The notes beneath the pieces are model-generated. The model was not told the DNA's origin. It searched no databases and saw nothing but the letters and a program-made list of their open reading frames with translations. A program made the position numbers and the translations under genes. Of a stretch of DNA of 64,000 nt, positions 17,243-50,017 are shown piece after piece. Source of the DNA: a virus; IMG/VR virus record IMGVR_UViG_3300022699_000224, positions 1 to 64,000 of that record; one strand, written 5' to 3'. The stretch's first letter is position 1; the number at the start of each line of letters is the position of its first letter.

Positions 17243-20200
17243 ATGGAAAAACAAATAATATTAAGCAATTTAATTAAATATTTAAAATTAAAAGATATAC
17301 CTATTAAGAAATCTGGTAAAATAATTATGTTAGAATGTCCTTTATGTAATTCACAACCAAATTCTGCTAATGTAATTCCAAATACTAATATAATTAATTG
17401 TTTTAAATGTAAAAAGAAATATAACTTATTAGATATTGCTGATAAATTAGAAAAAGATTTTCCTAATAAAGAAAAAGACCAATTACATTTTTTAAAAAAA
17501 TTATTGAAAATTAACATAAAAACGGAAGTAGATATAGATAATATTAATCAATATTTAGATTTCTATGAAAAAAATCATTTTGATTTAGTGCCTATAATAG
17601 CAAATGGCAAAAGACCAATAGAAAAAAATTGGACTAATAAATCTCATAAAAATAGACAAGAGTGGCAAACTTGGATTGCTAATAATCATAATATAGGAGT
17701 TAAAACTGGTAAAATATCTAATATAACAGTAATAGATATAGATGCAATGCCTTCTGATATGAAAGATAAATGGTATAAGGGTAAATTAACTAAAGAAGAA
17801 AAAAAAGAAGCAATTAAAATTAGAGATACAAAAATAAAGATGATATTAGATGATTTAGAACATCCTGAAAATGACACTTTATATCAAACTAATTTAGGTG
17901 GTATGCATTTATTTTATAAATATATTTCTGAATTCCCCAAAACTAGTATTGATTATAAAGAAATTAAAATTGATGTAGAAAATGATGGCGGTCAGGTAGT
18001 GATATATCCATCTTCAGTTTTTAAAACTAATAGAATATTTAAATTGAATCCTATCAAAACAATGCCTAAAAAAATAAAAAAATTTTTTACAGATAAAATA
18101 ACTACTCCTAAGAAAACTCATAGTGAAGATATAAAAGAAGCAATAGAAACAGAAAATTTTCAAATAGACCCTTCTAAGTTCTTATTAAAGAATAATAATC
18201 TAGAAGGAGTCTGTAATAATGAGTTTATTAAATTAGGTGGTATTTTAAGAAAACGATTAAATTTGAAACAGACAGAATATGTTTTAAACATGCTTAATCA
18301 GCATATGTTAGAAAATCCTATGCAATCTAAAACTATTAGGTCTATGATGAGAGAATTAGATAAATATCAGTTATTTGATGAAGATGAATTAGCTAATAAA
18401 ATTCAAGAATATTTAAAAGACGTAGAAGAGGCTAGTAGAACGGAAATAGCACTAGCTGTTGTAGGAACTAATAGAGGAGAAGATAAAAAAAGAGTAGATA
18501 AAGTATTAAAACATTTAGTGAAAGAGAGTTATATTATTAAAAAAGGAAGAAGTTATTTAACAAGAAAAAAAGTAGAATGGAGAGAAGAATTAATTAATAT
18601 AGGAACTCCTATAGATTTCCAAATGCCTTATTTTAATGATGTAATGACTTTTAATTATGGTGATTTAGTATTAATCGGTTCTAAAAATGCACATGGAAAA
18701 ACTCATATAGCTATGAATATAGTTAAACAACTAGTAGACCAAAAGATTATTCCTTACTATTTATCTTTAGAGGGTGGATGTTTTGATGAGCAAACAGAAA
18801 TACTTACAGAGCAAGGGTGGAAATATTTTAAAGATTTAAATAGGAAAGAAAAAGTAATGACATTAAATCCAGATACTGAAGAAATAGAATATCAGAAACC
18901 TACAAAATATTTTGAATATAATTATGATGGGAACTTAATCAATATAAATACTAGATATTTGGATTTATTAATAACTCCTAACCATAAACAACCTAGTAGA
19001 GTGAGAACTACAGGAAAAATAAGATTATATAATGCTCTTGATTTACCATATCATAATCCAATTCCTAAAACTGGAAACTGGAAAGGAGAAAATCAAAAAT
19101 ATTTTATATTACCTGGAATTACCTGGAATAAATATCTTGGAAAACATAAAAAATATTATAAGATTAAAGAAAAAAGTTTAAAAATAAAGATGGAAGATTG
19201 GGTAAAATTTTTTGGATTATTTTTAGCAGAAGGCTCTGTCGAAAAATATAGAGTTTCTATCTCACAATTTAGAAACAATAAAAAATTTATAGAAGTAAAA
19301 AATATTATGGATAAATTTCCATTTAGTTATACATATTCAAATCATCAGTTTAGGATTATAGATAAAAGACTAGGCATCTTTCTTAAAAAATTTGGAAAAT
19401 CTAACGAAAAATATATCCCTGATGAGTTGAAAAAATTAAATCCTAAGCTATTGAGTGAATTTCTTTATGGATATTATTTGGGAGATGGCTGTTATAAGAA
19501 CAAAAGAAGGGAATTTTATACAGTATCAAAAAAATTAGCAGGGGATTTACAAGAGATTATAACAAAAACTTCCAATTTTGCTAATATAAGTGTAAGAAAA
19601 TGTAAAAATACTAAAATGACTATAAATGGAAAATCTTATACTAGAAAACATAATTTATATATTGTAAGTGAAATAACAACGGTTAAAGATGTATATGCTA
19701 AAAGACAGAATAGACGAAATGTTTATTATAAAGGAAAAATATATGATGTAGAAGTTCCTAAACACCATATACTTCTAGTTAGAAGAAATGGAAAAAATTG
19801 CTGGTCTGGAAATTCAAGATGGGCTAAAATTGCATTACAATTAGGATTAAAAGAGGGAGATTTTAAGTGGCATGAAACTTCTAATCCTCATGATGTAGAA
19901 TTAGAAAAAAATTCTGTTACTATAATAGATTGGTTATGTCCTAAAAATTATGCAGAAACAGATAAAATACTACAATCTTTAAATGATGAAGTAAGAGACA
20001 AAAATGGAATATTGATAGTATTTATGCAATTAAGAGATAATAACGAATGGTTAGCTAAAGATTTAGTTAAACAATTCCCATCTTTTGCTTGTAGATATAT
20101 TTATGATAATGAAAGTAGTGGCGAATATGGAAAATTTAAAATAGATAAAATAAGAGAAGCTAAAATCAGAATAAAATCTTATGAACTACCTGCTAGATAT

Positions 20201-20287
20201 AATTGGGAAACTAAAAAATTATCTAGAATAGATAAATCAAAAGATGAAGAAATAGATAATATAGAAGATGAGGTTTTAGATGAATAG
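17243..20287 (+). CDS. Zn-finger / Prim-Pol primase / SF4-like helicase fusion, intein-containing
   Basis: CPLC..CFKC; NIGVKTG...VIDID, GG.HLFY; Walker A G....GKT; YLSLE; IIDWL; VFMQL. Confidence 0.88.
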   Translation: MEKQIILSNLIKYLKLKDIPIKKSGKIIMLECPLCNSQPNSANVIPNTNIINCFKCKKKYNLLDIADKLEKDFPNKEKDQLHFLKKLLKINIKTEVDIDNINQYLDFYEKNHFDLVPIIANGKRPIEKNWTNKSHKNRQEWQTWIANNHNIGVKTGKISNITVIDIDAMPSDMKDKWYKGKLTKEEKKEAIKIRDTKIKMILDDLEHPENDTLYQTNLGGMHLFYKYISEFPKTSIDYKEIKIDVENDGGQVVIYPSSVFKTNRIFKLNPIKTMPKKIKKFFTDKITTPKKTHSEDIKEAIETENFQIDPSKFLLKNNNLEGVCNNEFIKLGGILRKRLNLKQTEYVLNMLNQHMLENPMQSKTIRSMMRELDKYQLFDEDELANKIQEYLKDVEEASRTEIALAVVGTNRGEDKKRVDKVLKHLVKESYIIKKGRSYLTRKKVEWREELINIGTPIDFQMPYFNDVMTFNYGDLVLIGSKNAHGKTHIAMNIVKQLVDQKIIPYYLSLEGGCFDEQTEILTEQGWKYFKDLNRKEKVMTLNPDTEEIEYQKPTKYFEYNYDGNLININTRYLDLLITPNHKQPSRVRTTGKIRLYNALDLPYHNPIPKTGNWKGENQKYFILPGITWNKYLGKHKKYYKIKEKSLKIKMEDWVKFFGLFLAEGSVEKYRVSISQFRNNKKFIEVKNIMDKFPFSYTYSNHQFRIIDKRLGIFLKKFGKSNEKYIPDELKKLNPKLLSEFLYGYYLGDGCYKNKRREFYTVSKKLAGDLQEIITKTSNFANISVRKCKNTKMTINGKSYTRKHNLYIVSEITTVKDVYAKRQNRRNVYYKGKIYDVEVPKHHILLVRRNGKNCWSGNSRWAKIALQLGLKEGDFKWHETSNPHDVELEKNSVTIIDWLCPKNYAETDKILQSLNDEVRDKNGILIVFMQLRDNNEWLAKDLVKQFPSFACRYIYDNESSGEYGKFKIDKIREAKIRIKSYELPARYNWETKKLSRIDKSKDEEIDNIEDEVLDE
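18779..19813 (+). mobile_element. Intein (345 aa) with LAGLIDADG homing endonuclease in helicase domain
   Basis: EGG|CFDEQTEILT...TPNH...FFGLFLAEG...FLYGYYLGDG...YDVEV...SGN|S. Confidence 0.92.
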
Positions 20288-20555: not shown

Positions 20556-21584
20556 ATGAGGAGAAAAAAGTTTAATAAAAAATTATTTATGGAATTATAT
20601 AATTCTGGTAAATCAGATTATGAAATTTCTCAATTATTAGGTATAGGAGAAAGAACTGTATCTCGTCATGGACAAAGATTAAGAAAACAAGGAAAAATTA
20701 AACCTAGAAAAGATTTGCAAATAGAAGAAAAATTAAGTATAAAAAATTTAAAAGACGTAAATGTAAATGATGTTCTTAAAAATGCTAAAGCAACTTGGAA
20801 AATACCTCAAGGCAGAACTGCTAAAAAAGCAAATAAAAACTTTAAAATTTATTTATATATTGCAGACCATCATGTTCCAGAATATAATATTCCAGCCAAT
20901 AAAGCTATTTTTAAATTGATGCAAGATATAAAATTTGACGGTTTTCGTATTGTAGGAGATTTTATGGATATGTCTCCTATTAGTCATTGGAATGAGCATA
21001 AAAGAAAAACATTAGAAACTCAAAGATTAAAAAAAGATTATACAGTTGGTAACGTTTTATTGGATGAATATGATAAAAGATTGCCTAAGAATTGCGATAA
21101 AGCATATTTTTGGGGTAATCATGAAGATTGGTATAATCAGCTTTTAGAAAAATTACCTGTATTAGAGGGTTTATTGAACCCTACAGAAGAATTACATCTT
21201 ATTAAAAGAGGTTATAAAACATATGAAAATATAAATCATATCGAGAGAATAGGTAGATTATCAGTATGCCATGGGATGTATTCTACTATTTATGCAGTTA
21301 GAAAACATATACAAGAATTTAAAACTAATGTATTGTTTTTTCATACTCATAGAATAGGGTCTAGGTCTGAAAGTTCACCTGCAAAAGAAATATCTATTAT
21401 AGGTTATAATGGCGGTTGTTTATGTAATAAAAATCCTGATTATCGTAAAAACAGACCTAGTAAATGGTCGCATGGATTTGCAGTTGTTTATTATATGTCA
21501 AATGGATATTTTTATGTAGATAATGTAAGAATAATTAAAGGTAAATTTATTTATAATAATAAGTTATATGATGGTAATGAATAA
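20556..21584 (+). CDS. HTH + calcineurin-like metallophosphoesterase
   Basis: N-terminal HTH; ADHH.P, GDFMD, GNHE, HG, HTHR. Confidence 0.85.
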   Translation: MRRKKFNKKLFMELYNSGKSDYEISQLLGIGERTVSRHGQRLRKQGKIKPRKDLQIEEKLSIKNLKDVNVNDVLKNAKATWKIPQGRTAKKANKNFKIYLYIADHHVPEYNIPANKAIFKLMQDIKFDGFRIVGDFMDMSPISHWNEHKRKTLETQRLKKDYTVGNVLLDEYDKRLPKNCDKAYFWGNHEDWYNQLLEKLPVLEGLLNPTEELHLIKRGYKTYENINHIERIGRLSVCHGMYSTIYAVRKHIQEFKTNVLFFHTHRIGSRSESSPAKEISIIGYNGGCLCNKNPDYRKNRPSKWSHGFAVVYYMSNGYFYVDNVRIIKGKFIYNNKLYDGNE

Positions 21585-23283: not shown

Positions 23284-23520
23284 ATGCTTACATATTTAAT
23301 CCCTAAAAATTGTCAAATAGTAAAACATGAATGTCCTATTTATCATGAAAAAGATTATTTATTGCAAAATTTATATTCATTAGATTTAGAAATGAAAATA
23401 GTAGAGGTAACTGTTAATAGCATTAGTTTAACTGAAGATGGAGAAATTATCAAATATAGTGTTTGTCCAAGATGCGAAACTAAATTTATTAGAAAATTAG
23501 GAGAAAAAATAAATGTCTAA
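23284..23520 (+). CDS. Hypothetical protein
   Basis: ORF track; CPRC. Confidence 0.55.
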   Translation: MLTYLIPKNCQIVKHECPIYHEKDYLLQNLYSLDLEMKIVEVTVNSISLTEDGEIIKYSVCPRCETKFIRKLGEKINV

Positions 23521-25735
23521 AAAAGATTTAAATGATAAATTATCTCAACTAGAAAAAAATTTTGGATTAAAAAGAGCTTCCTCTCAAAAAAATGTAGAAT
23601 TTATTAGGACTGGTATATATTCGTTAGATTATGTATTAGATGGAGGTTTACAATTAGTAGAAGGAGGTCATAAAATAGAATTTTATGGCAAAGAAAGTTC
23701 TGGTAAGACTACTTTTGCTCAAAAGGTGGTAGCTAAATATCAAAAATTAGATAAAGTATGCGTATGGGTAGTTTCAGAGAGTTTTCATAAAGATTGGGCT
23801 AAAAAATTAGGAGTAAATACTGATAAATTATTATTATCTTATCCTGATTCTGTTGAAGATGCTACAGAAACTATTTTAAAGATAGTGCCAGAAGTAGATT
23901 TAATTGTAGTAGATAGTGTTGCAAGTTTGATTCCTGAAGTTGAAATAGAAAAATCAATGCATGAACAAACTAGAGGAGTTCAAGCTAAGGCTTATTCTCA
24001 ATTTTGTCGTAAATTATATAAAAAAATACTTAATCAAAAAGTTTCGTTAATTTTTATTAATCAATTAAGAGAAAAGATGGGAGTGCTTTATGGCAATCCA
24101 GAAATTACTCCTTGTGGTAGAGCATTAAAACATATGTATGATTGTTTAGGAGCAGATACTATAATTTATAACGGTAAAAAATTTATACCTTTAAAATATT
24201 TAAAAAGTAAAGTAACAAGTTATAATTTTAAGCATAAAAAATTCCAAAATAATAAATTATTACAAAAAAAAGCACAAAAATTTAAAAATTATTTAGAATT
24301 AGATTTAGGTATAACAAGAATAGATGCTTCGGAAAATCATAAATTTTATAATATTTCTTCTGATGGAACTTTACAGTTAAAAAGAGTTAAAAATCTCAAG
24401 AAAGGAGATATGCTATTATTATCGAAAGGGAAAAATTTTAAAATTAAAAATCCTTCATTTACTGACAATAAATTTGTAAGATTATTAGGATATTATGTTG
24501 GAGATGGATATAAAATAAATAAAGAAAATCATATAATTATAGCGGATAAAAATAGAAATTTCTTAAAATATTATCAAGATTTACTTAAAGAAAAGAGCTT
24601 TAAAATTAATAAATCAAGAAACACTAATTTATTACACATTAAAACAAAATTTAGTAATCATTTATTTGAGACTATTAGACAATATAAATTAGATGTAAAA
24701 GCTTCCAAAAAAAAGTTACCCTTTCTTTTTTATAATTTTTCAGATAACTGTCTTAAAGATTTTATAGCGGGATTTTATGATGCAGAGGGAAATGATAATA
24801 CAAATTTACCTACATTTCATTCCTCATCCGAGAAATTGTTAAGAAATATTCAATTTATGCTTTGGAGATTAGGAATAAGGTCAAATATTAATAAAAGAAA
24901 ATCGCAATCTTTAAAAAAATTACGAAATGATAAAAAATACTATACAATGTATGCTTTGTATGTATCTGATTCAAAAAGTATTATTAAATTTAAACGAGTT
25001 ATACCCACATTGAAAAATATTAAACTACCAAAATATAATTCAAAAATGCAATATAATTTTGTAGAATTAATAAAGGAATATCATAATATATTATTAAAAC
25101 GAAAGGAAATATCAAGATATTTGGGAAGAAATAATTCATTACAGCATTTAATTAAACAAAAGACTATTTCTTTAGATAGATTAAAAAATATCTATAGTAA
25201 GACTAAAAATTTAAGTTTTTTAAATGAACAAAACACAAAATATGAGAGAATATTAAAATTAAAACAAAATTTCGATTTTGTAAAAATAAAAAAAATCACT
25301 AAAAAAGCAACAAATTTTAAATATTTAGGCTTTAAAAAGAAATTAATAGATATTCAAGTTGAAAATGATGAAAATTTTATAGCAAACGGTATATTGTCTC
25401 ATAACTCAAGAATTGAATTTAGAACTAAAAAACCTATTGAAGTTGGCACTAAAAATAAAAAAGAAAGAATTGGAACGGAAATTCATTTATATGCTAAAAA
25501 AAATAAATTAGGAAAACCTCAAAGAAAAATTATAACCGATTTTTATTTTGATGGAACTATTGATAATGCTAAATCGTTATTACATGCAGGAATTAAATAT
25601 GACGTTATAGATTTTAGTGGAAAAACATATAAATTTGAAGATGTTAAAGCGGTTGGTAAAGTTAATTTTATTGAAGCAATGACTGAAAAAGAATGGAAAA
25701 AAGTGGAAAAAGAAATATGGCGAAGAATAAAATAG
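23513..25735 (+). CDS. recA: RecA/UvsX recombinase, intein-containing
   Basis: TG..SLD..L.GG, GKESSGKTT, IVVDSVA, IFINQLREK.GV.YGNPE.TP.GRALKH. Confidence 0.93.
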   Translation: MSKKDLNDKLSQLEKNFGLKRASSQKNVEFIRTGIYSLDYVLDGGLQLVEGGHKIEFYGKESSGKTTFAQKVVAKYQKLDKVCVWVVSESFHKDWAKKLGVNTDKLLLSYPDSVEDATETILKIVPEVDLIVVDSVASLIPEVEIEKSMHEQTRGVQAKAYSQFCRKLYKKILNQKVSLIFINQLREKMGVLYGNPEITPCGRALKHMYDCLGADTIIYNGKKFIPLKYLKSKVTSYNFKHKKFQNNKLLQKKAQKFKNYLELDLGITRIDASENHKFYNISSDGTLQLKRVKNLKKGDMLLLSKGKNFKIKNPSFTDNKFVRLLGYYVGDGYKINKENHIIIADKNRNFLKYYQDLLKEKSFKINKSRNTNLLHIKTKFSNHLFETIRQYKLDVKASKKKLPFLFYNFSDNCLKDFIAGFYDAEGNDNTNLPTFHSSSEKLLRNIQFMLWRLGIRSNINKRKSQSLKKLRNDKKYYTMYALYVSDSKSIIKFKRVIPTLKNIKLPKYNSKMQYNFVELIKEYHNILLKRKEISRYLGRNNSLQHLIKQKTISLDRLKNIYSKTKNLSFLNEQNTKYERILKLKQNFDFVKIKKITKKATNFKYLGFKKKLIDIQVENDENFIANGILSHNSRIEFRTKKPIEVGTKNKKERIGTEIHLYAKKNKLGKPQRKIITDFYFDGTIDNAKSLLHAGIKYDVIDFSGKTYKFEDVKAVGKVNFIEAMTEKEWKKVEKEIWRRIK
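24143..25405 (+). mobile_element. Intein (421 aa) with LAGLIDADG homing endonuclease in RecA
   Basis: MYD|CLGADT...SENH...LLGYYVGDG...FIAGFYDAEG...DIQV...NFIANGILSHN|S. Confidence 0.93.
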
Positions 25736-26016
25736 AAAGAAAATTAATTTGCGAATGCGGATATGTAGTTAATAATAAGAAAGAATATTTTAATCATTTA
25801 GAAAAATGCGGATTAAAACTAAATAGGAAATTAAAGGACAAAGAGGAAAAGAATAAAATGAGAATTACAATAGAATCGTTAGATAATAAAAGAAAAGCGA
25901 TTATTGAAACTCATGAATATATAGATATTTATGAAATAGCAGAGGAGTTACGAGGTTTATTAATTGCTTGGGGTTATCATTCTAATACTGTTAAAGAAAT
26001 ATTACCAGAGGAATAA
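25717..26016 (+). CDS. Hypothetical protein with C2HC zinc finger
   Basis: CECG...H...C. Confidence 0.55.
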   Translation: MAKNKIERKLICECGYVVNNKKEYFNHLEKCGLKLNRKLKDKEEKNKMRITIESLDNKRKAIIETHEYIDIYEIAEELRGLLIAWGYHSNTVKEILPEE

Positions 26017-26017
26017 T

Positions 26018-26929
26018 ATGCAATCTCTTCCAAAATATACAAAAATATTAACTCTTGGGTCAGCTTATACCCAAAATGCTTTAAAAGGAGAAATTATTAT
26101 ACAAGAAAAAGTTGATGGTAGTCAATTTCGTTTTGGAATAAATAAGAATAAAGAATTAGTTATAGGAACTCATAGAACTATAGTAACTTGTCCAGAAGAA
26201 AATAAAATGTTTGCAAAAGGTATTAAATATGTGCAAAGCATTGAAAAAATTTTAAAATCATTTCCAGTAAATACATATTTTTTTGGCGAATATTTAAAAA
26301 CATCTAAACATAATATATTAGAATATGATAGAATTCCTAATAATCATATCATATTATTTGATATTTTCTCCAACAATAAATGGATAACAAAAAGACAAGA
26401 ATTATTAAATTATGCTAATAAATTAAATTTAGAAATAGTGCCAGAATTATATAAAGGAATTATTAATTTAGAAAATTTAAAAAAGTTATTAAATACTTCA
26501 AGTTGTTTAGGAAAAGAATTAGTTGAGGGAATAGTAATTAAGAATTATAATCAAACTATATTATTAGGTGGTAAAGTATTTCCATTATTTACTAAATATG
26601 TAAGAGATAAATTTAAAGAAAGACATAATACTCAATGGAAGAAACAATCTAAAAAGAATTCAATAGAAAAGTTTATTCATAGTTTTAATACTAAAGCTAG
26701 ATGGAATAAAGCATTACAATACTTGAAAGAAAATAATCAATTAGAAAATAAACCTAGAGATATAGGAAAGCTAATTAAAAGAGTTAAAGATGATATTATA
26801 GAAGAAGAAACTGAAAATATTAAAGATTTTTTGTTTAAAAAATTCAGTTGTGATATTTTACGTAAATCTACTTATGGATTACCTGAATGGTATAAAAATA
26901 AGTTATTGGAAAATATAAAGGGAGAATAA
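26018..26929 (+). CDS. RNA ligase (Rnl2-like nucleotidyltransferase)
   Basis: QEKVDGS, FFGE, FDI, VP.LY.G, EGIVIK, KYV...FKE. Confidence 0.85.
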   Translation: MQSLPKYTKILTLGSAYTQNALKGEIIIQEKVDGSQFRFGINKNKELVIGTHRTIVTCPEENKMFAKGIKYVQSIEKILKSFPVNTYFFGEYLKTSKHNILEYDRIPNNHIILFDIFSNNKWITKRQELLNYANKLNLEIVPELYKGIINLENLKKLLNTSSCLGKELVEGIVIKNYNQTILLGGKVFPLFTKYVRDKFKERHNTQWKKQSKKNSIEKFIHSFNTKARWNKALQYLKENNQLENKPRDIGKLIKRVKDDIIEEETENIKDFLFKKFSCDILRKSTYGLPEWYKNKLLENIKGE

Positions 26930-27652
26930 ATGTTAGGAATTATTATGTTATTAGGATTATTAATGTTGATTACGATAATTCATGAATTAGGGCATTTAGT
27001 AGTTGCAAAACTTAGTGGAGTAAAAGTAGAAATATTTAGTATAGGATTTGGATTAAAATTATTTGGATTTAAAATAGGAGAAACTGAATATAGAATATCA
27101 TTAATACCCTTTGGAGGATATTGCGAAATAAAAGAATATAGTAATTCTAATAAAGAAGAAAATAATACTTTATATAGTAAAAGATATTTAATAAAAGTAG
27201 CAATAGCATTAGCAGGGGTAATAGCTAATTTGCTAACTGCTTTTGGTATATTATTTATGGTATCTTATTTTATAAGTAAATCTTTTATTCTAGCTTTTGA
27301 ATATAGTATAAATTTTATATATGATATTATATTAGTAACTATAATAAGTTTAAAATTATTATTTACAGGAAAACTTGTATTTAAAGGATATTTATTAAAT
27401 ACAGTTAATATAATAGGACAATATAATAATATTATATATTGGCTATTATTTTTTGTTATTTTCAGTATTACAGTAGCAATATTTAATTTGATACCTTTTC
27501 CATCTTTGGATGGTTCATTGCCTTTTTTATCTAGTTTAGAAAAAATATTTGATAAGAAAAAAGCTATTAAAATAAATAATATTATATGTAAAATAGGATT
27601 TATTATTTTAATAATTTTAACTGTTCTATGCGTTATTATAGGAGTTTTATAA
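26930..27652 (+). CDS. Site-2 (M50, RseP-like) intramembrane metalloprotease, no PDZ domain
   Basis: HELGH, FSIGFG, IPFGGY, AGV.AN, NLIPFPSLDG. Confidence 0.92.
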   Translation: MLGIIMLLGLLMLITIIHELGHLVVAKLSGVKVEIFSIGFGLKLFGFKIGETEYRISLIPFGGYCEIKEYSNSNKEENNTLYSKRYLIKVAIALAGVIANLLTAFGILFMVSYFISKSFILAFEYSINFIYDIILVTIISLKLLFTGKLVFKGYLLNTVNIIGQYNNIIYWLLFFVIFSITVAIFNLIPFPSLDGSLPFLSSLEKIFDKKKAIKINNIICKIGFIILIILTVLCVIIGVL

Positions 27653-27918
27653 TGAGTAAAAGAAAGAATAAATATATAAGAAAGTTAAGAAAATTAAATA
27701 AGTCATGGCAATTATTAAATAGAGGTTTAAGTTTAATTAAAAAGGTTTTTCCTAAAGATAAAGATATAGATTATTATTATTGGAAGATTGATAAATTAAG
27801 TAATAAATTGGTTATTCTAATAAGAAATAAATTAGAAAGTAAATATGTGAACGAAGAATGGAAAAAAATGGTCAAGAGATTAACAGATAATAAAGGTGAT
27901 AACAAATGGGAAGTATAA
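27652..27918 (+). CDS. Hypothetical protein
   Basis: ORF, TAATG coupling. Confidence 0.5.
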   Translation: MSKRKNKYIRKLRKLNKSWQLLNRGLSLIKKVFPKDKDIDYYYWKIDKLSNKLVILIRNKLESKYVNEEWKKMVKRLTDNKGDNKWEV

Positions 27919-28079
27919 GAGCATTTGAATGTCAAAAATGCGGAATATATATATCTTATAAACAAATAGGAACATTACAATATAATAAAGTATATATAAA
28001 GAAATGTTCTAAGTGTAATTATATAAATAAAGTGATTTTGAATAAATATAATGATGATAAAAATAAGGAGAAATCATGA
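27906..28079 (+). CDS. Small zinc-ribbon protein
   Basis: CQKC...CSKC, 57 aa, ATGA-coupled to next gene; below ORF-track cutoff. Confidence 0.55.
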   Translation: MGSIRAFECQKCGIYISYKQIGTLQYNKVYIKKCSKCNYINKVILNKYNDDKNKEKS

Positions 28080-28525
28080 GAGTAAGAGAATTAGAAAAAT
28101 TATTTAAATCTGAAGATACTTTAGAAGAAGTATTAGATAAATGTAAAGAAGATTTTGAATTAATAGATTATAATGCTAATACAGTATTAAAAATGAATTT
28201 ATCATCTAATCCTGAAGAAGTTAAAAAAACATTAAATGAATTGTCAGGAGCTTCTATGAATTTAAGACCTATTTTGGCTATAGCCAAAACTATTAAAAAG
28301 AATAAAGAATTAGTTAAATATCATAATTTAAAGACTGATATAGTAAATAATGGAAAAAAATTTGTATCTGCTTCCGTAGAAAGAGAGGCAAGTGCTTATG
28401 TTAAATCTTATAGAAGAGTTAGAAATATTATAGAAGCATATGTGGAAAGTGCTGATAAAGGTATAAGTTCTTTACAAAGTATATTAAAGGAATTAATTAC
28501 TGAAAAAAATAGTGAAAAGGAATAA
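28076..28525 (+). CDS. Helical hypothetical protein (possible recombination mediator)
   Basis: ORF, AAGGAG RBS; function only guessed. Confidence 0.55.
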   Translation: MRVRELEKLFKSEDTLEEVLDKCKEDFELIDYNANTVLKMNLSSNPEEVKKTLNELSGASMNLRPILAIAKTIKKNKELVKYHNLKTDIVNNGKKFVSASVEREASAYVKSYRRVRNIIEAYVESADKGISSLQSILKELITEKNSEKE

Positions 28526-28544
28526 TAATTGATAGAGGTAACAA

Positions 28545-28946
28545 ATGGATAATTCTAATATTTTTAAAATTTGGGGAGAACGTAGAAGATTATTATTAAC
28601 GGATAAATCTGAAATAGATTTATTATATTTAAAAAAAGATTGTTTTTGTTCTACACATAGACATGATAAAAAAATTAATAGATTTGTAGTTGTAGACGGA
28701 AGAGTAAAAATAGAAACTGAATTTGGTAGTAAAATACTATATAAAAATGATACATGGGAAGTTAATCCTAAAACTATACATAGATTTATTGCTTTAAAAA
28801 ATAGTATTATGATAGAATTGGCATACGTTAATAAAGGTAAAATAAATCCTAAAGATATTAAGAGATTTTATCAAGGTGGTAAAATTATTAATAATGAATA
28901 TATTAGTGAAAATGAACTTAGAAAAAAAGGATTATTAGAATTATGA
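28545..28946 (+). CDS. Cupin-fold protein
   Basis: K.WG, CS.H.H..K...F.V..G, HRF. Confidence 0.75.
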   Translation: MDNSNIFKIWGERRRLLLTDKSEIDLLYLKKDCFCSTHRHDKKINRFVVVDGRVKIETEFGSKILYKNDTWEVNPKTIHRFIALKNSIMIELAYVNKGKINPKDIKRFYQGGKIINNEYISENELRKKGLLEL

Positions 28947-29224
28947 AAACTTTAGCGTTATATGAGAATATTAAAAAATTCAAACTTAATATTACATCTG
29001 CGGATTTACAGTCATTTAATACTTGTGAAAAGTTAGCTGATTATATTTATAATAAAGTAATAGATAAAGAAAATATAGATGATATTTTAAATCGTGTTAT
29101 TATAAAACAAATTAAAATTGAACCTAATCAAGATAAAATGAGTTCTATTTATATAATATATTATTTATTAGAAGAGATACTAGATGCTAAAGAGTGTTAT
29201 GAACGATTAAAAATAGGATTATAA
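28943..29224 (+). CDS. Hypothetical protein
   Basis: ORF, ATGA coupling. Confidence 0.55.
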   Translation: MKTLALYENIKKFKLNITSADLQSFNTCEKLADYIYNKVIDKENIDDILNRVIIKQIKIEPNQDKMSSIYIIYYLLEEILDAKECYERLKIGL

Positions 29225-29225
29225 T

Positions 29226-29714
29226 ATGGATTCTAGACATCTTATTATTTTAGTTGGAAATATAGGAACAGGTAAAACTACACTAGTTAAAAAATATCAA
29301 AAAAAGGGATATGTAGTTATTGCTAGAGACCAATTACGATATACTATAGGTAATGGAGAATATATTTTTAATCATAATTATGAACCTATTATTTGGGATT
29401 CCGAATTATATATGTTTGAAAGATTTATAGAATTAGGCGTTGATGTTATAATTGATGAAGTAGGATTAAATAAAAAAATGAGAAATAGATATATTTCTAA
29501 AGCAAAATATTACAATTATTTTATAACTGTTATAGTATTTCCAAAATTAACTATGAAAGAATCTGTTGATAGAAGATTAAATAATCCACATGGACAACCT
29601 GATAGAAATTTATGGGAAAGAGTATGGAAAAATTTTGATGAAATATATGAAGAACCTACTAAAGATGAAGGTATTGATGAAATTATAAGGTTAAAAAGGG
29701 AGGATGTTATATGA
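29226..29714 (+). CDS. P-loop kinase (polynucleotide-kinase-like)
   Basis: GNIGTGKTT, RD.LR, VIID, EEP...EG. Confidence 0.8.
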   Translation: MDSRHLIILVGNIGTGKTTLVKKYQKKGYVVIARDQLRYTIGNGEYIFNHNYEPIIWDSELYMFERFIELGVDVIIDEVGLNKKMRNRYISKAKYYNYFITVIVFPKLTMKESVDRRLNNPHGQPDRNLWERVWKNFDEIYEEPTKDEGIDEIIRLKREDVI

Positions 29715-29926
29715 GTATGCATAAATCTTTAAAAATTAAAAAGTTTAATAAAAAGAAAAAAAGAAATGTTAGAAAAAAACATGAAAGATTTTTAAAATAT
29801 ATGGAAAATGTGGGTAAAAAGAAAGCATATAAAAACGTATTTAATCTTCCTAAAGAGAAAGTTATTAAGTTTAAAGTTAAGAAAAAAGAAGAAAAAGATA
29901 CAGAAGAAACTGATAATATTGTTTGA
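29711..29926 (+). CDS. PVC-superphylum 'small basic protein' homolog
   Basis: MSMHKSL...KRNV.K..ER.......VFNLPK pattern. Confidence 0.7.
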   Translation: MSMHKSLKIKKFNKKKKRNVRKKHERFLKYMENVGKKKAYKNVFNLPKEKVIKFKVKKKEEKDTEETDNIV

Positions 29927-29949
29927 TTTAATAAAAAAGGAATAGTTAT

Positions 29950-30609
29950 ATGTATTTAATAAAAAGAGTTTTAGAATGGAATAAAGATAATAATGGTTGG
30001 AGTATTTGTCCTAATGATAATTCTATTAAAATTAAAATAGGCGATGAAGTAAATGTTAGCCCACGTGCTGTAATAGATAAAGAAGCTATAATTGGAAACA
30101 GAGTTATAATTGGAGATGATACAGAAATAGGCGATACTACATATATAGATGATGATGTTGAAATTGGTAATAATGTTGATATTGGCTCTGATGTAATAAT
30201 TAGCAGTCATACTAAAATTGGTAATCAAGTTATAATTGGTAGTATGACTCAAATGGGTTTTTATACTAAAATTGGCAATCAAGTTACCATAGGCAAATGC
30301 ACAGGATTAGGATTAGGAACTACTATAGGCGATGGAACTAAAATAAGCAGTGGGGTAAATCTATATGCAGGAATTGAAATTGGAGATAATGCTAAGATTT
30401 TAAAAACTCCTTTACAAATTCAAGGTTCTAAAGATTTGGTTATATATGCTGAAGATTTAATTCAGATAGGTATGGATAGTAATAATAGAATGAGTATAAA
30501 AGAATGGGAAGAAAAAGCAGATAATATATTAAAAAAATGTAATTATACTTCAAAACAGATAAAAGAATATAAACAATATTTAAATTTTATAAAAGGATTT
30601 AATAAGTAA
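29950..30609 (+). CDS. Hexapeptide-repeat (LbH) protein
   Basis: IGxxVx repeats; C-terminus KTPLQIQGSK...IQIG...SIKEW...Y...QIKEYK.Y shared with ORF 1-483. Confidence 0.85.
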   Translation: MYLIKRVLEWNKDNNGWSICPNDNSIKIKIGDEVNVSPRAVIDKEAIIGNRVIIGDDTEIGDTTYIDDDVEIGNNVDIGSDVIISSHTKIGNQVIIGSMTQMGFYTKIGNQVTIGKCTGLGLGTTIGDGTKISSGVNLYAGIEIGDNAKILKTPLQIQGSKDLVIYAEDLIQIGMDSNNRMSIKEWEEKADNILKKCNYTSKQIKEYKQYLNFIKGFNK

Positions 30610-30625
30610 AATAGGAGGTATATTT

Positions 30626-30823
30626 ATGGGTGATGTTATTAGAGCAACTGCAATAAATTATTTAAACTTTTTTAAAAAAGCATATAAGAAATATAAAGCA
30701 ACTGATAAGGATACTCGTATGAAAACCGCTTTAAATAGGATAGAGAAATTTATTAAAAAACAACCTACAATAGAAAATTTTATGCGAGAAGAAATAAAGA
30801 AAATTAAAAATGAAATTAATTAA
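30626..30823 (+). CDS. Hypothetical protein
   Basis: ORF with AGGAGGT RBS. Confidence 0.55.
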   Translation: MGDVIRATAINYLNFFKKAYKKYKATDKDTRMKTALNRIEKFIKKQPTIENFMREEIKKIKNEIN

Positions 30824-33800
30824 TATACATAGTAATGGAAGAACTATATATTTATTTTGGAGAGATAACGAAAATAAATTACATGTAAAACGTAAAAAAG
30901 ATTTTTTTCCTTATTATTATGAAATATCTCCAAATGAAGAAGGGAAATATAAAGGATATGATAATTCTCCATTGAAAAAAATATATGTATCTAAACCAAA
31001 CGAAGTCAGAAAATTAAGAAGCTCTAACGCATATGAGGCAGATATAATATTTACTAAACGATTCTTAATAGATAAAATAGATAAAATAGAGCCTTGTCCT
31101 ATAAAAATTGCTTATATAGATATAGAAGTTAAAGCTCCTGAATTTCCTAATCCTGATAACGCACAATATCCAGTTTCATGTATTAGCGTCGGTAACTCTT
31201 TTAAAAAAGAAATTAAAACTTTTTGGATAAAAAATTTTGATACTGAATTTGATTTAATAGAAACATTTATAAAATATATGAGAAAAGAAAAGTATGACCT
31301 TTTTTGTAGTTGGCATGTAGATTTTGATTATAATTATTTATATAATCGTTATCCTGATTTTGCAAAAAAACTTAGTCCAATAAATGAAACTAGATATGGT
31401 AACGATAAAGTCTTATATCCTGCTGGAATATCTATTATAGATTATTTAAGCTGGTTTAAAGCATTTACAAGAAATAAATATAGAGTATATAGTTTAGACG
31501 CAGTTGCTCAAAAAGATTTACAAGAAAAAACATGGGGTAATACTGATTTTGATTCTTTAAATGATGAAATTAAAAAAAAGAATATTAATGATGTTAAAAG
31601 AATGATTAAATTGGAAAATAAATATAATATAGTTTCATTATTTGATGAAATTCGTAGATTTTCTAAAGTAGAATGGGAAGATTTAGGAACTTATAATTCT
31701 AGAGTTATAGATATGTTAGTATTACAAGAAGCAAAAAATCAAAAAATAGTTTTACCTATGAAACCAAGAGATAAGATAAAAGAAGAATTCGAAGGAGCAT
31801 ATAGAGATACTTATGAAACAGGTAGATTTTTTAATGTAGGCAAATATGATTTAAGCGGTGCTTATATGTATGCTATTATAGATTTAGCTTTAGATTCTGC
31901 TAATATTAAAGAAAATTCTAATAATAATACTATACCTGTTAATATTACAGATAGAAAAACTCATAAAATTTTGAATACGTATAATGTAGAACAAAATAAA
32001 AACGGTATATTACCATTAGTAGCAAAAAAATTAATTGATGAAAAGAATAAATTAAAAAAAGAACGAGCTTTATTAGACCCTAATTCAGAAGAATATAAAA
32101 TATTAGATAAACGATATGATGCTTTAAAGGTTATAGTGCTTAGTTGTTGGGGAGTTATAGGTAATCAGTATTTCAGATTATTTGATTCTAGAGTAGCAGG
32201 GATGATTACTTCTGTAGTTAGAAGTCTTATTTGGTATGTAGATGATAAATTGAAAGAATTAGGATATAAAGTCTTATATGTTGATACAGATGGGTTAATA
32301 ATAGATGATAAAGGGGAAACTATTACAGATTTATTAAATGATTTAATAACTAAATGGGCTAAAGAAAAATTTAATAAAAAGGTATCTATAAGATTTGATT
32401 GTGAAGGACATTTTGAGAAATTATATATTGCTACTAAATGCAGATATAAAGGTTATTTAAAAACAGATACAGGTATTAAAGAAGAAACTAAAGGATTAGA
32501 AATTAAAAGAAAGGACTCAACTAAGTATATACAGAAATTTCAGGATAAATTGATTGATAAAATTTTAAATAAAGAATCAGAAGAAATAGTTATTAAATGG
32601 ATTAATAACAAAATTAATAATTTTAAAAATAATAAATTAACTGATATTGCATTTCCTTGTAAATTATCTAGGAAACCTAATGATTATAAAAATATTCCTA
32701 TATTTTTAAGAGCATTAAATAATACTGAAAATTTTAATAAAAAAGTAGGGGAATTATATTATTATATTTATGTTAAGCCTAATAAAGAGAGAAAACGTAA
32801 AACAATTATAAAAGTAAAAGAAAAAGAAAATATAATATTAAATAAAGATTTATCTAGAAAGGAAGGTATAGTATACGCAAGAAAAACTTATGAGAATTCT
32901 AATTTGAAAACATCAGATATAAGTGTATTACATAAAAGAGAAAAAGCTAAAGATGTAGTAGCATTTGATAAAGATAACTATGACCATATAAATAAAGAAG
33001 ATATTGATTGGAAAAAAATGATTGATAGAAATATAATGATGAAAATAGATTCTATATTTAAATCTATGAAATGGGATATAAAAAAATTAAATTTTGCGGA
33101 GGAAGTGTCGAAAGAGACACATCGAAATACCATTTCGAAAAGTAAGGTGCAAGTCCTTAACTCCGCTCCAAAATCTAATAATAAAAAATATCCTAATGAT
33201 TATCCAATAGAAAAAGGTAAAACTTTATCTAAAGAAGAATTAAAAAAATTAAATTTAAAGTGTAAACCAAAAATAAAAAATAGAGATAAAATAGAAGAAT
33301 TTTTAAAAATAAATAATAATAAACAAATAAAAGCATTAAAAAATAATTTTAATCCTGAACCTTATATAGAAGAATATAATTTAGATTTTCAATGGGTTAG
33401 TTTCATTAATACTATTAGTTCTACTATGTTTAAAAATAGACCTGGAAGAAGTATTAAATTATTAGTAAAAGATAAAAATTATGATTTTATATATGGAATT
33501 ATTTCTTTAAGTAGTCCTATGATTAATAAAAAAATTAATAAATACTTTAAAGATAATAATAAAATGCCTAAAGTAGATTTTAATTTTATAAATAGACATA
33601 TTATAGATATAAATGTATGTGTAGGAACAGGAATATTAACTAAATATTTAACAGGTAAATTGTTAACATATATTGCATTATCCGAAGAAATTAAAAATAT
33701 GTGGGATAAAAAATATAATACTGATATAAAATATATAATGACTACTTCTATTTATGGAAAATCATCTATTTATAATAGAATTAAATCATTTAAATTTTTA

Positions 33801-34109
33801 GGATTATCTGAAGGTTGGAATGTAACTTTTACTCAAAAACAAATAGATTGGTTAAAAAAAGAACATAAAAAACTATATCCTCATCATAAACTTTCAATTT
33901 CAGGAAAATCGTCTCATTTGTTCCGTAGATGGAATCAAGTTTGGAGAAAATACCATGATAAAATGCCATTTTTTCCTTATAAATTAAGAAGAGGAACTTA
34001 TTTATTTGATATTAATAAAACTCCTTTTTTAAGTATAAAAGATAATATAAAATATTGGAAAAAAAGATGGTATTATCCTAGAAAGGAAAGATTAAAGAAT
34101 GAAAAATAA
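30810..34109 (+). CDS. Family-B DNA polymerase fused to C-terminal DUF4338/DruA-like (Mom/GNAT-like) domain
   Basis: Exo YIDIE, FDYNYL; Pol EGAY, YDLSGAY, K...LS.WG, YVDTDG, KGLE.KR.D; after about aa 850 RPGRSIKLLVKD...GIISLSS...GKLL...TTSIYGKSSIYNR...FLGLSEG. Confidence 0.9.
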   Translation: MKLINIHSNGRTIYLFWRDNENKLHVKRKKDFFPYYYEISPNEEGKYKGYDNSPLKKIYVSKPNEVRKLRSSNAYEADIIFTKRFLIDKIDKIEPCPIKIAYIDIEVKAPEFPNPDNAQYPVSCISVGNSFKKEIKTFWIKNFDTEFDLIETFIKYMRKEKYDLFCSWHVDFDYNYLYNRYPDFAKKLSPINETRYGNDKVLYPAGISIIDYLSWFKAFTRNKYRVYSLDAVAQKDLQEKTWGNTDFDSLNDEIKKKNINDVKRMIKLENKYNIVSLFDEIRRFSKVEWEDLGTYNSRVIDMLVLQEAKNQKIVLPMKPRDKIKEEFEGAYRDTYETGRFFNVGKYDLSGAYMYAIIDLALDSANIKENSNNNTIPVNITDRKTHKILNTYNVEQNKNGILPLVAKKLIDEKNKLKKERALLDPNSEEYKILDKRYDALKVIVLSCWGVIGNQYFRLFDSRVAGMITSVVRSLIWYVDDKLKELGYKVLYVDTDGLIIDDKGETITDLLNDLITKWAKEKFNKKVSIRFDCEGHFEKLYIATKCRYKGYLKTDTGIKEETKGLEIKRKDSTKYIQKFQDKLIDKILNKESEEIVIKWINNKINNFKNNKLTDIAFPCKLSRKPNDYKNIPIFLRALNNTENFNKKVGELYYYIYVKPNKERKRKTIIKVKEKENIILNKDLSRKEGIVYARKTYENSNLKTSDISVLHKREKAKDVVAFDKDNYDHINKEDIDWKKMIDRNIMMKIDSIFKSMKWDIKKLNFAEEVSKETHRNTISKSKVQVLNSAPKSNNKKYPNDYPIEKGKTLSKEELKKLNLKCKPKIKNRDKIEEFLKINNNKQIKALKNNFNPEPYIEEYNLDFQWVSFINTISSTMFKNRPGRSIKLLVKDKNYDFIYGIISLSSPMINKKINKYFKDNNKMPKVDFNFINRHIIDINVCVGTGILTKYLTGKLLTYIALSEEIKNMWDKKYNTDIKYIMTTSIYGKSSIYNRIKSFKFLGLSEGWNVTFTQKQIDWLKKEHKKLYPHHKLSISGKSSHLFRRWNQVWRKYHDKMPFFPYKLRRGTYLFDINKTPFLSIKDNIKYWKKRWYYPRKERLKNEK
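33096..33170 (+). tRNA. tRNA-Gly(ACC)-like element embedded in frame in the polymerase gene; probably non-proteinogenic
   Basis: GCGGAGG AA GTGTC-GAAAGA-GACAC A TCGAA-ATACCAT-TTCGA AAAG TAAGG-TGCAAGT-CCTTA ACTCCGC T CCA. Confidence 0.85.
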
Positions 34110-40120: not shown

Positions 40121-40313
40121 ATATACTAGAGAAGAATTACAAGAAGCATTAAAAGATGTTAAACAATTTATTTTAATGACTAAAGATACTCCTAATGGAA
40201 CTCCAAAACGTTTATTGATTTTTCGGGATTTATTGAAAAAAGAATTGATAATAAAAAACCATACTCCTCATAAATTGGAAGAATTAAAACATTTCAAAGA
40301 AAAAGAGAGATAA
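40110..40313 (+). CDS. Hypothetical protein
   Basis: ORF track. Confidence 0.5.
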   Translation: MKFKYTREELQEALKDVKQFILMTKDTPNGTPKRLLIFRDLLKKELIIKNHTPHKLEELKHFKEKER

Positions 40314-41795
40314 ATGAATAATAAATATAAAAAAATATTGAATCCCTTTATAAGTTCTCTACAATACGTTTTAAATGATGATAATATAGATGTTTATAAG
40401 AACGAACAATATATTAAAGATAGTTTAGCTAATGGAAAAATTTGGGATATTAGTCATTCAGAAGATAATGATTTTAAAAGAATAATACAAATTTTTCATC
40501 AAACTACCCAATTAGAGAATAGTCTTGATTTTGATTTGGGAGATGAAAATTTATTCGTGCAAGAAAACGAAGATAAAACTGAATTTACTAATCAAGGTGA
40601 ATTACAATTACAATTTTCTCCTTGGGCATCAACTTATGCAGGTTGGCACTTAAATGAATCATCTGGAAATATAGCATATGATTTTTCTGATAACGAAAGA
40701 AATGCAATTACTGTAAATAATCCTTTATGGATAGAAGGTAAATTAAATAATTGTTTACAATTTAATGGAATTAATCAATATGTAAATTGTGGAGATATAG
40801 CTAATTTTGATTATGATGAATCATTTAGTTTAGAATGTTGGTTTAAAACTAAAAGTAAAAATCAAATTATACTTAGTCGTATGGATAATAATTTAGTAAG
40901 AGGATGGCAATTAGTGCTTCATAAATCTACTTCGATTTATTTTGGATTATATCATACAACAGTCCCTACAAATGCTTTAGTTGTTTATACTGATTCTACA
41001 GGTTGGAATGATGATGAATGGCATCATATAATTATGACTTATGATGGAACTAATAGTCCTTCTGGAATTTGTATTTATATAGATAGAGAAAAACAATCTT
41101 TGATTACATATGGTAATACTTTAACAAGTTCTATAAAAAACCCTGCTAATTGTCAAATTTCAGGAAGAGATGGAGATACTCTTCTTTGGAAAGGAAATAT
41201 AGATGAAACTATTATTTATGATAAAACATTAACTGTTGATGAAGTAGCAAATAGATGGAATTCAGGACAAGGAATTGAATTAACAGGATATGATATTTCT
41301 CAAGGTTGGTATGTTCATACTAATGAAAATCAAATAGATACTTCATTATGGAAAAATATAATCAATATAGGATTTACAGAAACTAAACCAACTGAAACAG
41401 AAATAAGATATTATATATCAACTGATAATAGAAATACTTGGAAATATTGGGATAATGACCATTGGAAGAGTGAAAATAATTTAGATAATATAGATATACT
41501 AGGCAATAGTTCAAGTGAATTAGAATCTTTAAATGAAAATAATTGGATAGATATTGGTTTAACAGATACCTTTGATATTGCTATGAGTTTAAAGACTATA
41601 AATGCAGAAAATACTCCTAGTTTAAGTCAAATTGATATTGCGTATAGATTTCCAGGTAAAATTAAATGTAAAGATTCTCAAATAAGAATAGAATTAATTT
41701 CCCCAACTCTTACTAGAATTACTAATATTTCAGGTGTATTAACTAGTCCTTTAACAGATTTAAGAGCAAATATATTAATTGAAAAAAAATTATAA
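40314..41795 (+). CDS. LamG/concanavalin-A-like domain protein (probable virion protein)
   Basis: W.LNE.SG..AYD.S, FSLECWFK, WHHI..TYDG, G.IDE..IYD..L. Confidence 0.8.
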   Translation: MNNKYKKILNPFISSLQYVLNDDNIDVYKNEQYIKDSLANGKIWDISHSEDNDFKRIIQIFHQTTQLENSLDFDLGDENLFVQENEDKTEFTNQGELQLQFSPWASTYAGWHLNESSGNIAYDFSDNERNAITVNNPLWIEGKLNNCLQFNGINQYVNCGDIANFDYDESFSLECWFKTKSKNQIILSRMDNNLVRGWQLVLHKSTSIYFGLYHTTVPTNALVVYTDSTGWNDDEWHHIIMTYDGTNSPSGICIYIDREKQSLITYGNTLTSSIKNPANCQISGRDGDTLLWKGNIDETIIYDKTLTVDEVANRWNSGQGIELTGYDISQGWYVHTNENQIDTSLWKNIINIGFTETKPTETEIRYYISTDNRNTWKYWDNDHWKSENNLDNIDILGNSSSELESLNENNWIDIGLTDTFDIAMSLKTINAENTPSLSQIDIAYRFPGKIKCKDSQIRIELISPTLTRITNISGVLTSPLTDLRANILIEKKL

Positions 41796-41806
41796 CTTAA
41801 CTAATT

Positions 41807-42547
41807 ATGAAATCAATAAGAAAAATAAGTGTAAAAACAGTAGCTTTAAAAACTATTATATATAGAATTTTTATAATTTTAGTGCAAGCATTTTTTACTT
41901 TTCTTTATATTAAAAATTTTTCTAAAGCATTAAATATAAGTATAGGATGGAATGTAATTAATATAGGATTATATTTTATTTATGAATATTTATTTGCTAA
42001 AAAGTGGGATATGACTATTCAAACTAAAGGAGCTGTTATATGGTTAACAGGTTTGCCTTGTAGCGGTAAGACTACTATAGGTAATAAATTAGCTACTATA
42101 TTAAAAAGAAAAGGATTAAATGTAGAAAGACTTGATGGAGACATAGTAAGAAAAGGTAAATTAAGTGATGATTTAGGATTTTCTAAAGAAGATAGAGATA
42201 AAAATATTAATAGAATTACATTTGTAAGTAAATTATTATCTAGAAATAAAACAATAGTAATAGCATCTTTTGTTTCCCCCTATATATATACACGAAATAA
42301 TATAAGAAATAATGTTACAAATTTTATAGAAGTTTATGTAAAAGCTTCATCTGAAATATGTGCTAAAAGAGATGTAAAAGGAATGTGGGCTAAAGCAAAA
42401 AAAGGAATAATAAAAGGATTTACAGGATATGATGACCCTTATCAAAAGCCTAATAATCCAGAAATTATATGTAATACCGAAAAAGAAAATTTAAGTAATA
42501 GTGTTAATAAAATATTAGTCTATTTAGAGAATAAAAAAATTATATAG
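41807..42547 (+). CDS. cysC: Adenylylsulfate (APS) kinase with N-terminal membrane domain
   Basis: IWLTGLPCSGKTT, LDGD.VR, LGFSKEDR..N..R, FVSPY, RDVKG, FTG.DDPY..P. Confidence 0.93.
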   Translation: MKSIRKISVKTVALKTIIYRIFIILVQAFFTFLYIKNFSKALNISIGWNVINIGLYFIYEYLFAKKWDMTIQTKGAVIWLTGLPCSGKTTIGNKLATILKRKGLNVERLDGDIVRKGKLSDDLGFSKEDRDKNINRITFVSKLLSRNKTIVIASFVSPYIYTRNNIRNNVTNFIEVYVKASSEICAKRDVKGMWAKAKKGIIKGFTGYDDPYQKPNNPEIICNTEKENLSNSVNKILVYLENKKII

Positions 42548-42557
42548 GAGACTGAAT

Positions 42558-43826: not shown

Positions 43827-43834
43827 GAATAAAT

Positions 43835-49997: not shown

Positions 49998-50017
49998 ATA
50001 GTATTAAGGAGATTCAA

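Follow-up and report, generated by a model that had tools for sequence, protein, structure and literature searches.

A phage-borne homolog of the PVC signature small basic protein and its putative viral subfamily in AT-rich phages

Why would a phage carry the gene for a protein that otherwise serves as a signature of one bacterial superphylum? The question is raised by an open reading frame in a viral stretch of 64,000 nucleotides (the window), which comprises bases 1 to 64000 of the 89,485-bp IMG/VR record IMGVR_UViG_3300022699_000224 (G000). The frame, an ATG-started coding sequence on the + strand at positions 29711 to 29926, encodes a protein of 71 aa (P0001) with a conserved core at residues 1 to 57 and an acidic, low-confidence tail at residues 58 to 71. 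An initial annotation, made from the letters alone, had read it as the small basic protein (SBP, family TIGR04137) of the superphylum Planctomycetes-Verrucomicrobia-Chlamydiae (PVC), co-opted by the phage from a PVC host. Few single proteins serve, as the PVC signature protein does, to define a bacterial superphylum; what it does has been an open question since 2008 to 2014. We find that P0001 is a true but divergent homolog of this family and that, judged from sequence, the phage copies form a distinct viral subfamily common to a clade of related AT-rich phages. Homology, location on phage DNA, conservation across the clade, purifying selection, and a subfamily signature are each directly supported by the observations below; readings of what the protein does are given with graded confidence.

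The setting is that of a genuine phage. G000 belongs to the direct terminal repeat (DTR) class, with terminal repeats of 81 bp, is 100% complete according to CheckV, and encodes a 1154-aa tape-measure protein, baseplate and other virion structural proteins, and a tail-fiber-like protein. Its replication and recombination genes include those for a family B DNA polymerase (PolB), a primase-polymerase (PrimPol), an intein-bearing RecA, RuvB, and Mre11/Rad50, and the genome holds no tRNA genes. GC content is about 23% over the genome and uniform along the window (0.19 to 0.29). Because a tblastn search with PolB against 50,697 GenBank phage records returned nothing above about 26% identity, G000 appears to be without a cultured relative.

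The family call of the initial annotation was right. TIGR04137 is the sole NCBIfam match of P0001 (E = 1.6e-8), residues 1 to 51 align end to end with profile positions 1 to 49 of 50, and the match is significant, yet its 34.2 bits (33.6 bits in a six-frame search) fall below the curated cut-off of 50 bits. The motif string quoted at the outset is present, with MSMHKSL followed by nine residues, KRNV at 17 to 20, one further residue, K22, two more residues, E25 and R26, and VFNLPK at 43 to 48. When invariant and nearly invariant columns are taken from alignments of 20 and 142 rows, all family-conserved residues prove to be kept: M1, S2, H4, S6, L7 (and K8), R18, V20, K22, E25, R26, L46, P47, K48, and K50, with K at the R/K position 23. 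A Pfam scan gave just Sec62 at E = 7.7 and left PF00327 (uL30) unmatched at E<=10, and a PHROGs search gave weak tail matches only. When 1.84 billion cluster representatives were searched exhaustively with phmmer, 19 matched at E<=1e-3, 17 of them proteins of 63 to 100 aa that align from residue 1 and the other two long proteins (640 and 871 aa) matched through internal repeats. In the alignment of P0001 with its best matches (A1), all 20 rows match TIGR04137 at E<=0.01, the best with E = 1.8e-20.

A composition control was required because the window GC is only 0.19 to 0.29 and the protein is lysine-rich. For this purpose a hidden Markov model (HMM) was built from 32 cellular members (21 from genomes of the planctomycete phylum, three from high-GC metagenome contigs, and eight from named Omnitrophota) with no phage rows. 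With this model P0001 reaches 49.1 bits, whereas the highest score among 2000 shuffled versions of it is 14.7 bits, and the top-scoring other frame, out of 506 that run from stop to stop over 40 aa or more in G000, has 4.4 bits. The match is therefore no by-product of lysine content.

Is the gene peculiar to this one phage? Peptide-pattern scans of IMG/VR with P0001 and with its closest relative, P0004 (60% identity, from a 1058-bp contig), gave no match, and neither did tblastn searches of GenBank phages with P0001 and P0015. Two degenerate DNA patterns made from family motifs picked out six stretches of IMG/VR, six of six clear family members, on viral records of 20.6 to 101.6 kb with locus GC of 26 to 31%. 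Each of the six loci holds homologs of G000 genes, such as those for PolB (45 to 49% identity), an Mre11-like protein (53 to 58%), and a 342-aa protein described below (71 to 74%), and one relative, G108, shows collinearity with G000 along the 100 kb that were read. IMG/VR labels G108 (L048-L052, 100.6 kb) a provirus; its GC is even (0.26 to 0.33), with no recognizable host flank in the 100 kb read. A scan of metagenomes added six SBP loci, two of them low in GC (27 to 30%), of the LPKEK type and flanked by genes of the same phage clade, and the remaining four at 50 to 75% GC, of the cell type and without phage genes. Thus all nine phage-type copies with readable context lie on phage DNA, with intact genes.

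Among 12 related IMG/VR records the SBP gene was detected in six at E<=0.01; the six without it comprise two small fragments (10 to 12% complete), three partial genomes (57 to 74% complete), and one complete genome (G112), such that three of the four complete genomes, G000 included, carry the gene. Its position varies in detail, lying 0.9 kb upstream of the PolB gene in G000, about 2 kb downstream of it in G108, and adjoining it at two loci (L008 and L011), and it adjoins the Mre11-like gene at three (L008, L010, and L053). Across these phages it remains inside the replication and recombination module, which PolB marks in G000 and its relatives.

The phylogeny places the phage copies on a branch of their own within the family. 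A tree of 165 rows, which is weakly resolved (66 columns, quick search), falls into a cluster of 43 rows that includes all nine context-proven phage copies (Shimodaira-Hasegawa approximate likelihood ratio test [SH-aLRT] 90), one of 25 rows with all 21 planctomycete rows, and one of 97 rows with all eight named Omnitrophota. In a more careful tree of 41 labeled rows, a single branch separates the nine phage copies from all other rows; its ultrafast bootstrap is 93 and its SH-aLRT 88, and it recurs in 90% of 200 bootstrap trees. Support for a single phage branch is good but not decisive, and its sister group is unsettled because the trees do not fix the root.

The branch also has sequence marks of its own. 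After re-rooting, the clusters held 41 phage-type, 24 planctomycete, and 94 Omnitrophota-type rows. The string PKEK occurs in 40 of 41, none of 24, and two of 94 rows, respectively; a basic residue or Asn after R-x-V (V-[RKN]) in 38 of 41 phage-type rows and in neither cellular group (0/24 and 0/94); and L, F, or Y at that position in no phage-type row (0/41) and in every planctomycete (24/24) and Omnitrophota-type (94/94) row. The phage changes are thus RNV-R-KR for RNV-L-KR and LPK-E-K for LPK-V/I-K, and P0001 departs from the cellular members at both sites, with R21 and E49. This two-position signature was derived in our analysis and lies outside the curated TIGR04137 definition. A C-terminal [SKA][RK]D..[IT][RK]K motif is found in 11 of 41 phage-type rows, none of 24 planctomycete rows, and none of 94 Omnitrophota-type rows, the G000 copy being without it. 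The ratio of GARP to FYMINK residues in the tail is 0.54 in the phage type, 4.63 in the planctomycete type, and 4.16 in the Omnitrophota type; of the three, only the phage type has the tail composition of AT-rich coding DNA. Pairwise dN/dS is 0.16 to 0.49 in 10 of the 14 closest phage pairs (those with computable dS, with dS near saturation), and the phage copies are under purifying selection. The original idea that the phage had co-opted a host factor holds insofar as this is a phage homolog of a cellular family; in place of a lone recent capture, we see a diversified viral subfamily spread across the clade.

How might the phage express the gene? The SBP gene begins inside the end of its upstream neighbor, the two overlapping by 4 nt at 29711 to 29714 (ATGA, which holds both the ATG and the TGA stop codon), and a Shine-Dalgarno-like GGGAGGA, seen in the sequence on the + strand at 29698 to 29704, lies 6 nt 5′ of the ATG and would function in ribosome binding. 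The preceding gene (29226 to 29714, + strand) encodes a P-loop kinase of AAA_33 or Zeta-toxin-like fold (Pfam AAA_33, E = 6.2e-10); the two genes are likely cotranscribed, and the overlap suggests coupled translation. Downstream on the + strand are genes for a left-handed beta-helix protein of hexapeptide repeats (29950 to 30609; Pfam Hexapep, E = 6e-20) and for PolB (30810 to 34109; Pfam DNA_pol_B, E = 1e-25; phrog_262, E = 4e-69). Promoter-like sites in the sequence occur at the level of shuffles (29 seen, 31.6 expected), and no terminators were found in 27500 to 31000. An RNA ligase gene (25964 to 26929, + strand; Pfam RNA_ligase, E = 2.4e-17) lies 2.8 kb upstream of the SBP gene. Pairing of an RNA ligase with a kinase resembles phage RNA-repair systems, and the two genes upstream of SBP may possibly form such a context; a tie to SBP itself would be speculative.

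Other genes of G000 merit description in their own right. PolB (1099 aa) has a C-terminal DruA-like domain (PF14236, aa 862 to 1034, E = 1e-7; also phrog_19197). The PolB of G108 (781 aa) aligns only with approximately the first 786 residues of the G000 protein, so that the DruA-like extension is confined to the lineage of G000. RecA (23513 to 25735) is split by an intein that carries an endonuclease domain of the LAGLIDADG type, and the 1014-aa primase-polymerase (17243 to 20287) carries a LAGLIDADG_3 insert. No protein of the phage clade is better conserved than the one of 342 aa (20556 to 21584), whose identity is 68 to 74% in six records and 54% in two more; it has no Pfam match, and a GNHE-type motif suggests a metallophosphoesterase. 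An M50 site-2 protease family protein without a PDZ domain (26930 to 27652) has no homolog in the collinear relative G108. A sugar-nucleotide or glycan island at about 40300 to 50000 includes a Laminin_G_3 protein (40314 to 41795) and a UDP-glucose/GDP-mannose dehydrogenase (42558 to 43826) whose best relatives are at most 53% identical, some of them on contigs of 97 to 110 kb; blastp finds no G108 counterpart for the open reading frames of this island.

What is known of the cellular family suggests where the phage protein might act. In passages of two reports, the Chlamydia trachomatis member, CT421.2, is described as a protein of about 53 to more than 80 aa that occurs in all PVC phyla and not elsewhere (PMC3444138, PMC2474590), and part of a third has it highly expressed (PMC5541142). 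Cavalier-Smith and Chao (2020), who call the protein sRp, cite Lagkouvardos 2014 as showing that it is small, binds RNA, and folds in an L30-like pattern, propose that it replaces ribosomal protein L30 (uL30), which is absent from PVC bacteria, and report homologs in Aerophobetes (PMC7203096). We checked the cellular distribution in one phylum, that of two planctomycete metagenome-assembled genomes titled "Brocadiaceae" (36% identity). There, 97 of 101 genomes hold a TIGR04137 match above the cut-off, a single one in each case, as against none of 14 control genomes; uL30 (PF00327) is found in none of 61 of those planctomycete genomes versus 13 of the 14 controls. The two distributions, being complementary, agree with the idea of substitution without proving it. 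In the planctomycete genomes, a class I/II aminotransferase is encoded downstream of SBP at eight of 20 loci, and PdxA or VWA proteins are found at others. One of these loci (L015, G010:C1:2840510-2848653), in a 9.3-Mb genome, has just 34% GC versus 40 to 78% at the other 19.

An AlphaFold2 model of P0001, built from the 142-row alignment, has a mean predicted local distance difference test (pLDDT) score of 75, with averages of 91 to 93 for 10-residue blocks over residues 21 to 50 and values below 50 for residues 62 to 71. It predicts helices at 23 to 34 and 36 to 41, which would form a helical hairpin core, followed by a disordered tail. Because the model matches no solved chain, uL30 included, it does not reproduce the L30-like fold.

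We favor, at close to an even chance, the view that P0001 is a functional, phage-adapted homolog of the PVC signature protein (TIGR04137, CT421.2, or sRp) that acts on the ribosome or rRNA. An ancestor of the clade of AT-rich tailed phages of about 80 to 100 kb would have acquired the gene from cells of a PVC lineage, our best guess for the donor being Omnitrophota-like. After capture, it would have been inherited and diversified in the phages as a separate subfamily, marked by Arg, Lys, or Asn for Leu after R-x-V, Glu for Val or Ile in L-P-K-x-K, and in some members the second C-terminal motif. The protein would be expressed alongside the replication and recombination genes, and its expression is probably coupled to that of the kinase gene upstream. 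In the 2014 work of Lagkouvardos et al., gel shifts reportedly showed DNA and RNA binding by the family, and this, together with its positive charge, suggests that the helical hairpin core of the phage protein binds nucleic acid. The likeliest target would be rRNA or the ribosome of the host; there the phage protein might supplement or displace the host copy during infection, as has been proposed for ribosomal proteins that viruses encode, phage bS21 among them. A stronger version, in which the viral subfamily consists of phage-specified ribosome components that replace the host's uL30 substitute in infection and so reprogram translation, we regard as doubtful.

Several observations weigh against this account. 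Association of the family with the ribosome or nucleoid has the standing of a hypothesis in the literature, undemonstrated for any member, and the family's gene context in cells gives no translation link, there being no translation-related neighbors at the 20 planctomycete loci and no rRNA at the 18 scanned. A profile search of solved structures found no family member at E<=1, and for the AlphaFold2 model Foldseek gave a best E of 6.7 and VIA-align nothing at Z>=2 among 48,161 chains. P0001 is not alone in falling under the curated cut-off, which only one of the six related phage copies passes (that of G104, 53.2 bits). The gene is also absent from G112 (95.8 kb, complete, DTR), even by the more sensitive A1 profile, and because this complete relative is without it, SBP is dispensable. 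The labeled rows of the trees come from groups other than Verrucomicrobiota, Chlamydiota, and Lentisphaerota, and a common AT-driven amino acid composition may inflate the phage branch. The gene also sits amid DNA replication and recombination genes, a place that would suit a DNA-binding role equally.

Such a role is the first alternative to be weighed: SBP would be a histone-like DNA-binding accessory that coats or condenses phage DNA in replication, recombination, or packaging. We consider it unlikely, but it is consistent with the extreme basicity of the protein, with the DNA as well as RNA binding reported for the family, and with the cellular loci without translation-related context, in addition to the proximity to PolB (G000, L008, and L011) and Mre11 (L008, L010, and L053). 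The complementary distribution of uL30, together with the high constitutive expression of CT421.2 noted in part of PMC5541142, suits a ribosomal role better. That the phages are AT-rich and the cellular family spans 34 to 78% GC counts against a sequence-specific DNA role, although not against a nonspecific one.

The substitutions that set the phage proteins apart can also be read as signs of interference, with SBP as a dominant-negative or decoy that blocks the site of the host protein or titrates its partner, in the service of host shut-off or evasion of defense. The residue after R-x-V is hydrophobic in all 118 cell-type rows and replaced by a charged type in 38 of 41 phage-type rows, 116 of 118 cell-type rows are non-PKEK as against 40 of 41 phage-type rows with PKEK (Glu), and the extra C-terminal motif is conserved in phage-type copies alone. 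The neighbors of SBP, moreover, are a kinase and an RNA ligase. In phage T4, the kinase and RNA ligase Pnk and Rnl1 repair RNA damaged by host defenses. All remaining family-invariant residues are nonetheless kept, as would be expected for the same mode of binding, and the G000 copy itself is without the C-terminal motif; an interference factor seems to us quite improbable.

The idea that SBP is a neutral passenger, a chance frame, or cellular DNA mis-assembled into a viral contig could appeal to a short, lysine-rich frame in a 23% GC genome, to the sub-cut-off score, and to the complete relative without the gene, but its likelihood is close to nil given the shuffle and same-genome controls, intact genes in nine of nine phage contexts with dN/dS <1, uniform window GC, tightly packed phage genes on one strand with a 4-nt overlap with the upstream gene, and collinearity with G108. 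A chance frame or an assembly artifact is, for practical purposes, excluded.

If SBP is a phage-adapted homolog acting on host ribosomes, from which lineage did it come, and which host does the phage infect? The A1 profile has 2839 matches at E<=1e-5; among the 120 matches listed, for which organism names were examined, nine are named, eight as Candidatus Omnitrophica or Omnitrophota and one as "bacterium." Mean identity of the phage copies is higher to Omnitrophota-type than to Planctomycetota members for eight of nine copies and equal for one, and HMM bit scores are higher with the Omnitrophota-type set for six of nine, a comparison that is biased because this set was picked by a profile rich in phage-type rows. 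The cell-type tails in the sample, moreover, are GARP-rich (4.2 to 4.6 versus 0.54), so that none of the sampled cellular copies derives from a genome as AT-rich as those of the phages. An ESM Atlas search with SBP gave matches of at most 0.79 without taxa, and a search for homologs of the UDP-glucose/GDP-mannose dehydrogenase as a host clue yielded relatives no closer than 53% identity, none of them with an organism name. The initial annotation had taken the host to be a PVC bacterium and had proposed the taxonomy of other host-like genes as a check; of these, the M50 protease has its nearest ESM Atlas clusters in Thermodesulfobacteriota and Bacillota, with no PVC signal. The sole pointers to a PVC host are the SBP gene itself and its mild affinity to Omnitrophota-type sequences. 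The argument for such a host stands mainly because a factor that docks on a lineage-specific host machine would be useful only in that lineage. We regard a host in the PVC group, Omnitrophota included, as plausible and somewhat favored but unproven, and Omnitrophota specifically as a tentative assignment, rather less than evenly probable.

Comparison with known systems helps to place the protein. TF1 of phage SPO1, a phage-encoded histone-like DNA-binding protein of the HU type, is likewise a small basic nucleic acid-binding protein in a phage replication region, but there is no homology. With the cellular TIGR04137 family the phage protein shares its length class, the MS-x-H-x-SLK, R-x-V-x-K-R/K-x-ER, and LPK-x-K motifs, its strong basicity, and a full-length profile alignment, with a core predicted to be a helical hairpin. 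It differs in being phage-encoded, below the cut-off, and on a separate branch, with charged residues at two sites that are hydrophobic in cells, an AT-biased tail, and a gene that is dispensable in the clade, whereas the cellular gene is near-universal and single-copy (97/101). Virus-encoded ribosomal proteins are an established kind, as parts of two reports indicate (Mizuno et al. 2019, PMC6375957; Chen et al. 2022, PMC9723584). Phage bS21 in particular is comparable as a small basic protein of a host-translation type, carried patchily by related large uncultivated phages and presumed to tune ribosomes in infection; unlike bS21, to which it has no sequence relation, SBP has a cellular counterpart that is a ribosomal protein by hypothesis only, in a family limited to one superphylum. 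With uL30 (PF00327) the likeness is one of similar size and complementary distribution, along with the substitution proposed in the relevant section of PMC7203096; P0001 nevertheless has no PF00327 match and its model no structural match.

In the literature searched, neither a phage-borne copy or viral subfamily of the PVC signature protein nor the term "TIGR04137" was found, and the papers joining "PVC superphylum," "signature protein," and "phage" are, by title and abstract, general PVC, evolution, or genome work, none of it on phages. The family was already known, as was the notion that phages may carry factors of translation or of the nucleoid; the phage copy and the viral subfamily appear to be new to that literature.

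The finding bears first on the use of SBP as a marker. Metagenomic matches to this "PVC marker" can be viral: of the 165 nearest rows in our sample, 41 to 43, about a quarter, belong to the phage type. Caution is therefore advisable when SBP is used in phylogeny as a marker or in screens for "new PVC members." The gene is, conversely, a candidate marker for metagenomic phages of PVC and Omnitrophota bacteria. To our knowledge, almost no phages of Omnitrophota or of other PVC hosts are known, and if our reading is true, SBP would be a sequence marker linking AT-rich phages of about 80 to 100 kb to such hosts. It also extends the list of translation- or nucleoid-type host factors carried by phages and, again if the reading is true, would be the first virus-encoded lineage-specific ribosomal protein. 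For the family itself, a selected copy in a phage lineage, altered at two otherwise fixed sites, amounts to a natural experiment on function, and the two diagnostic substitutions single out the residues at which phage and host proteins may be compared on ribosomes or nucleic acids.

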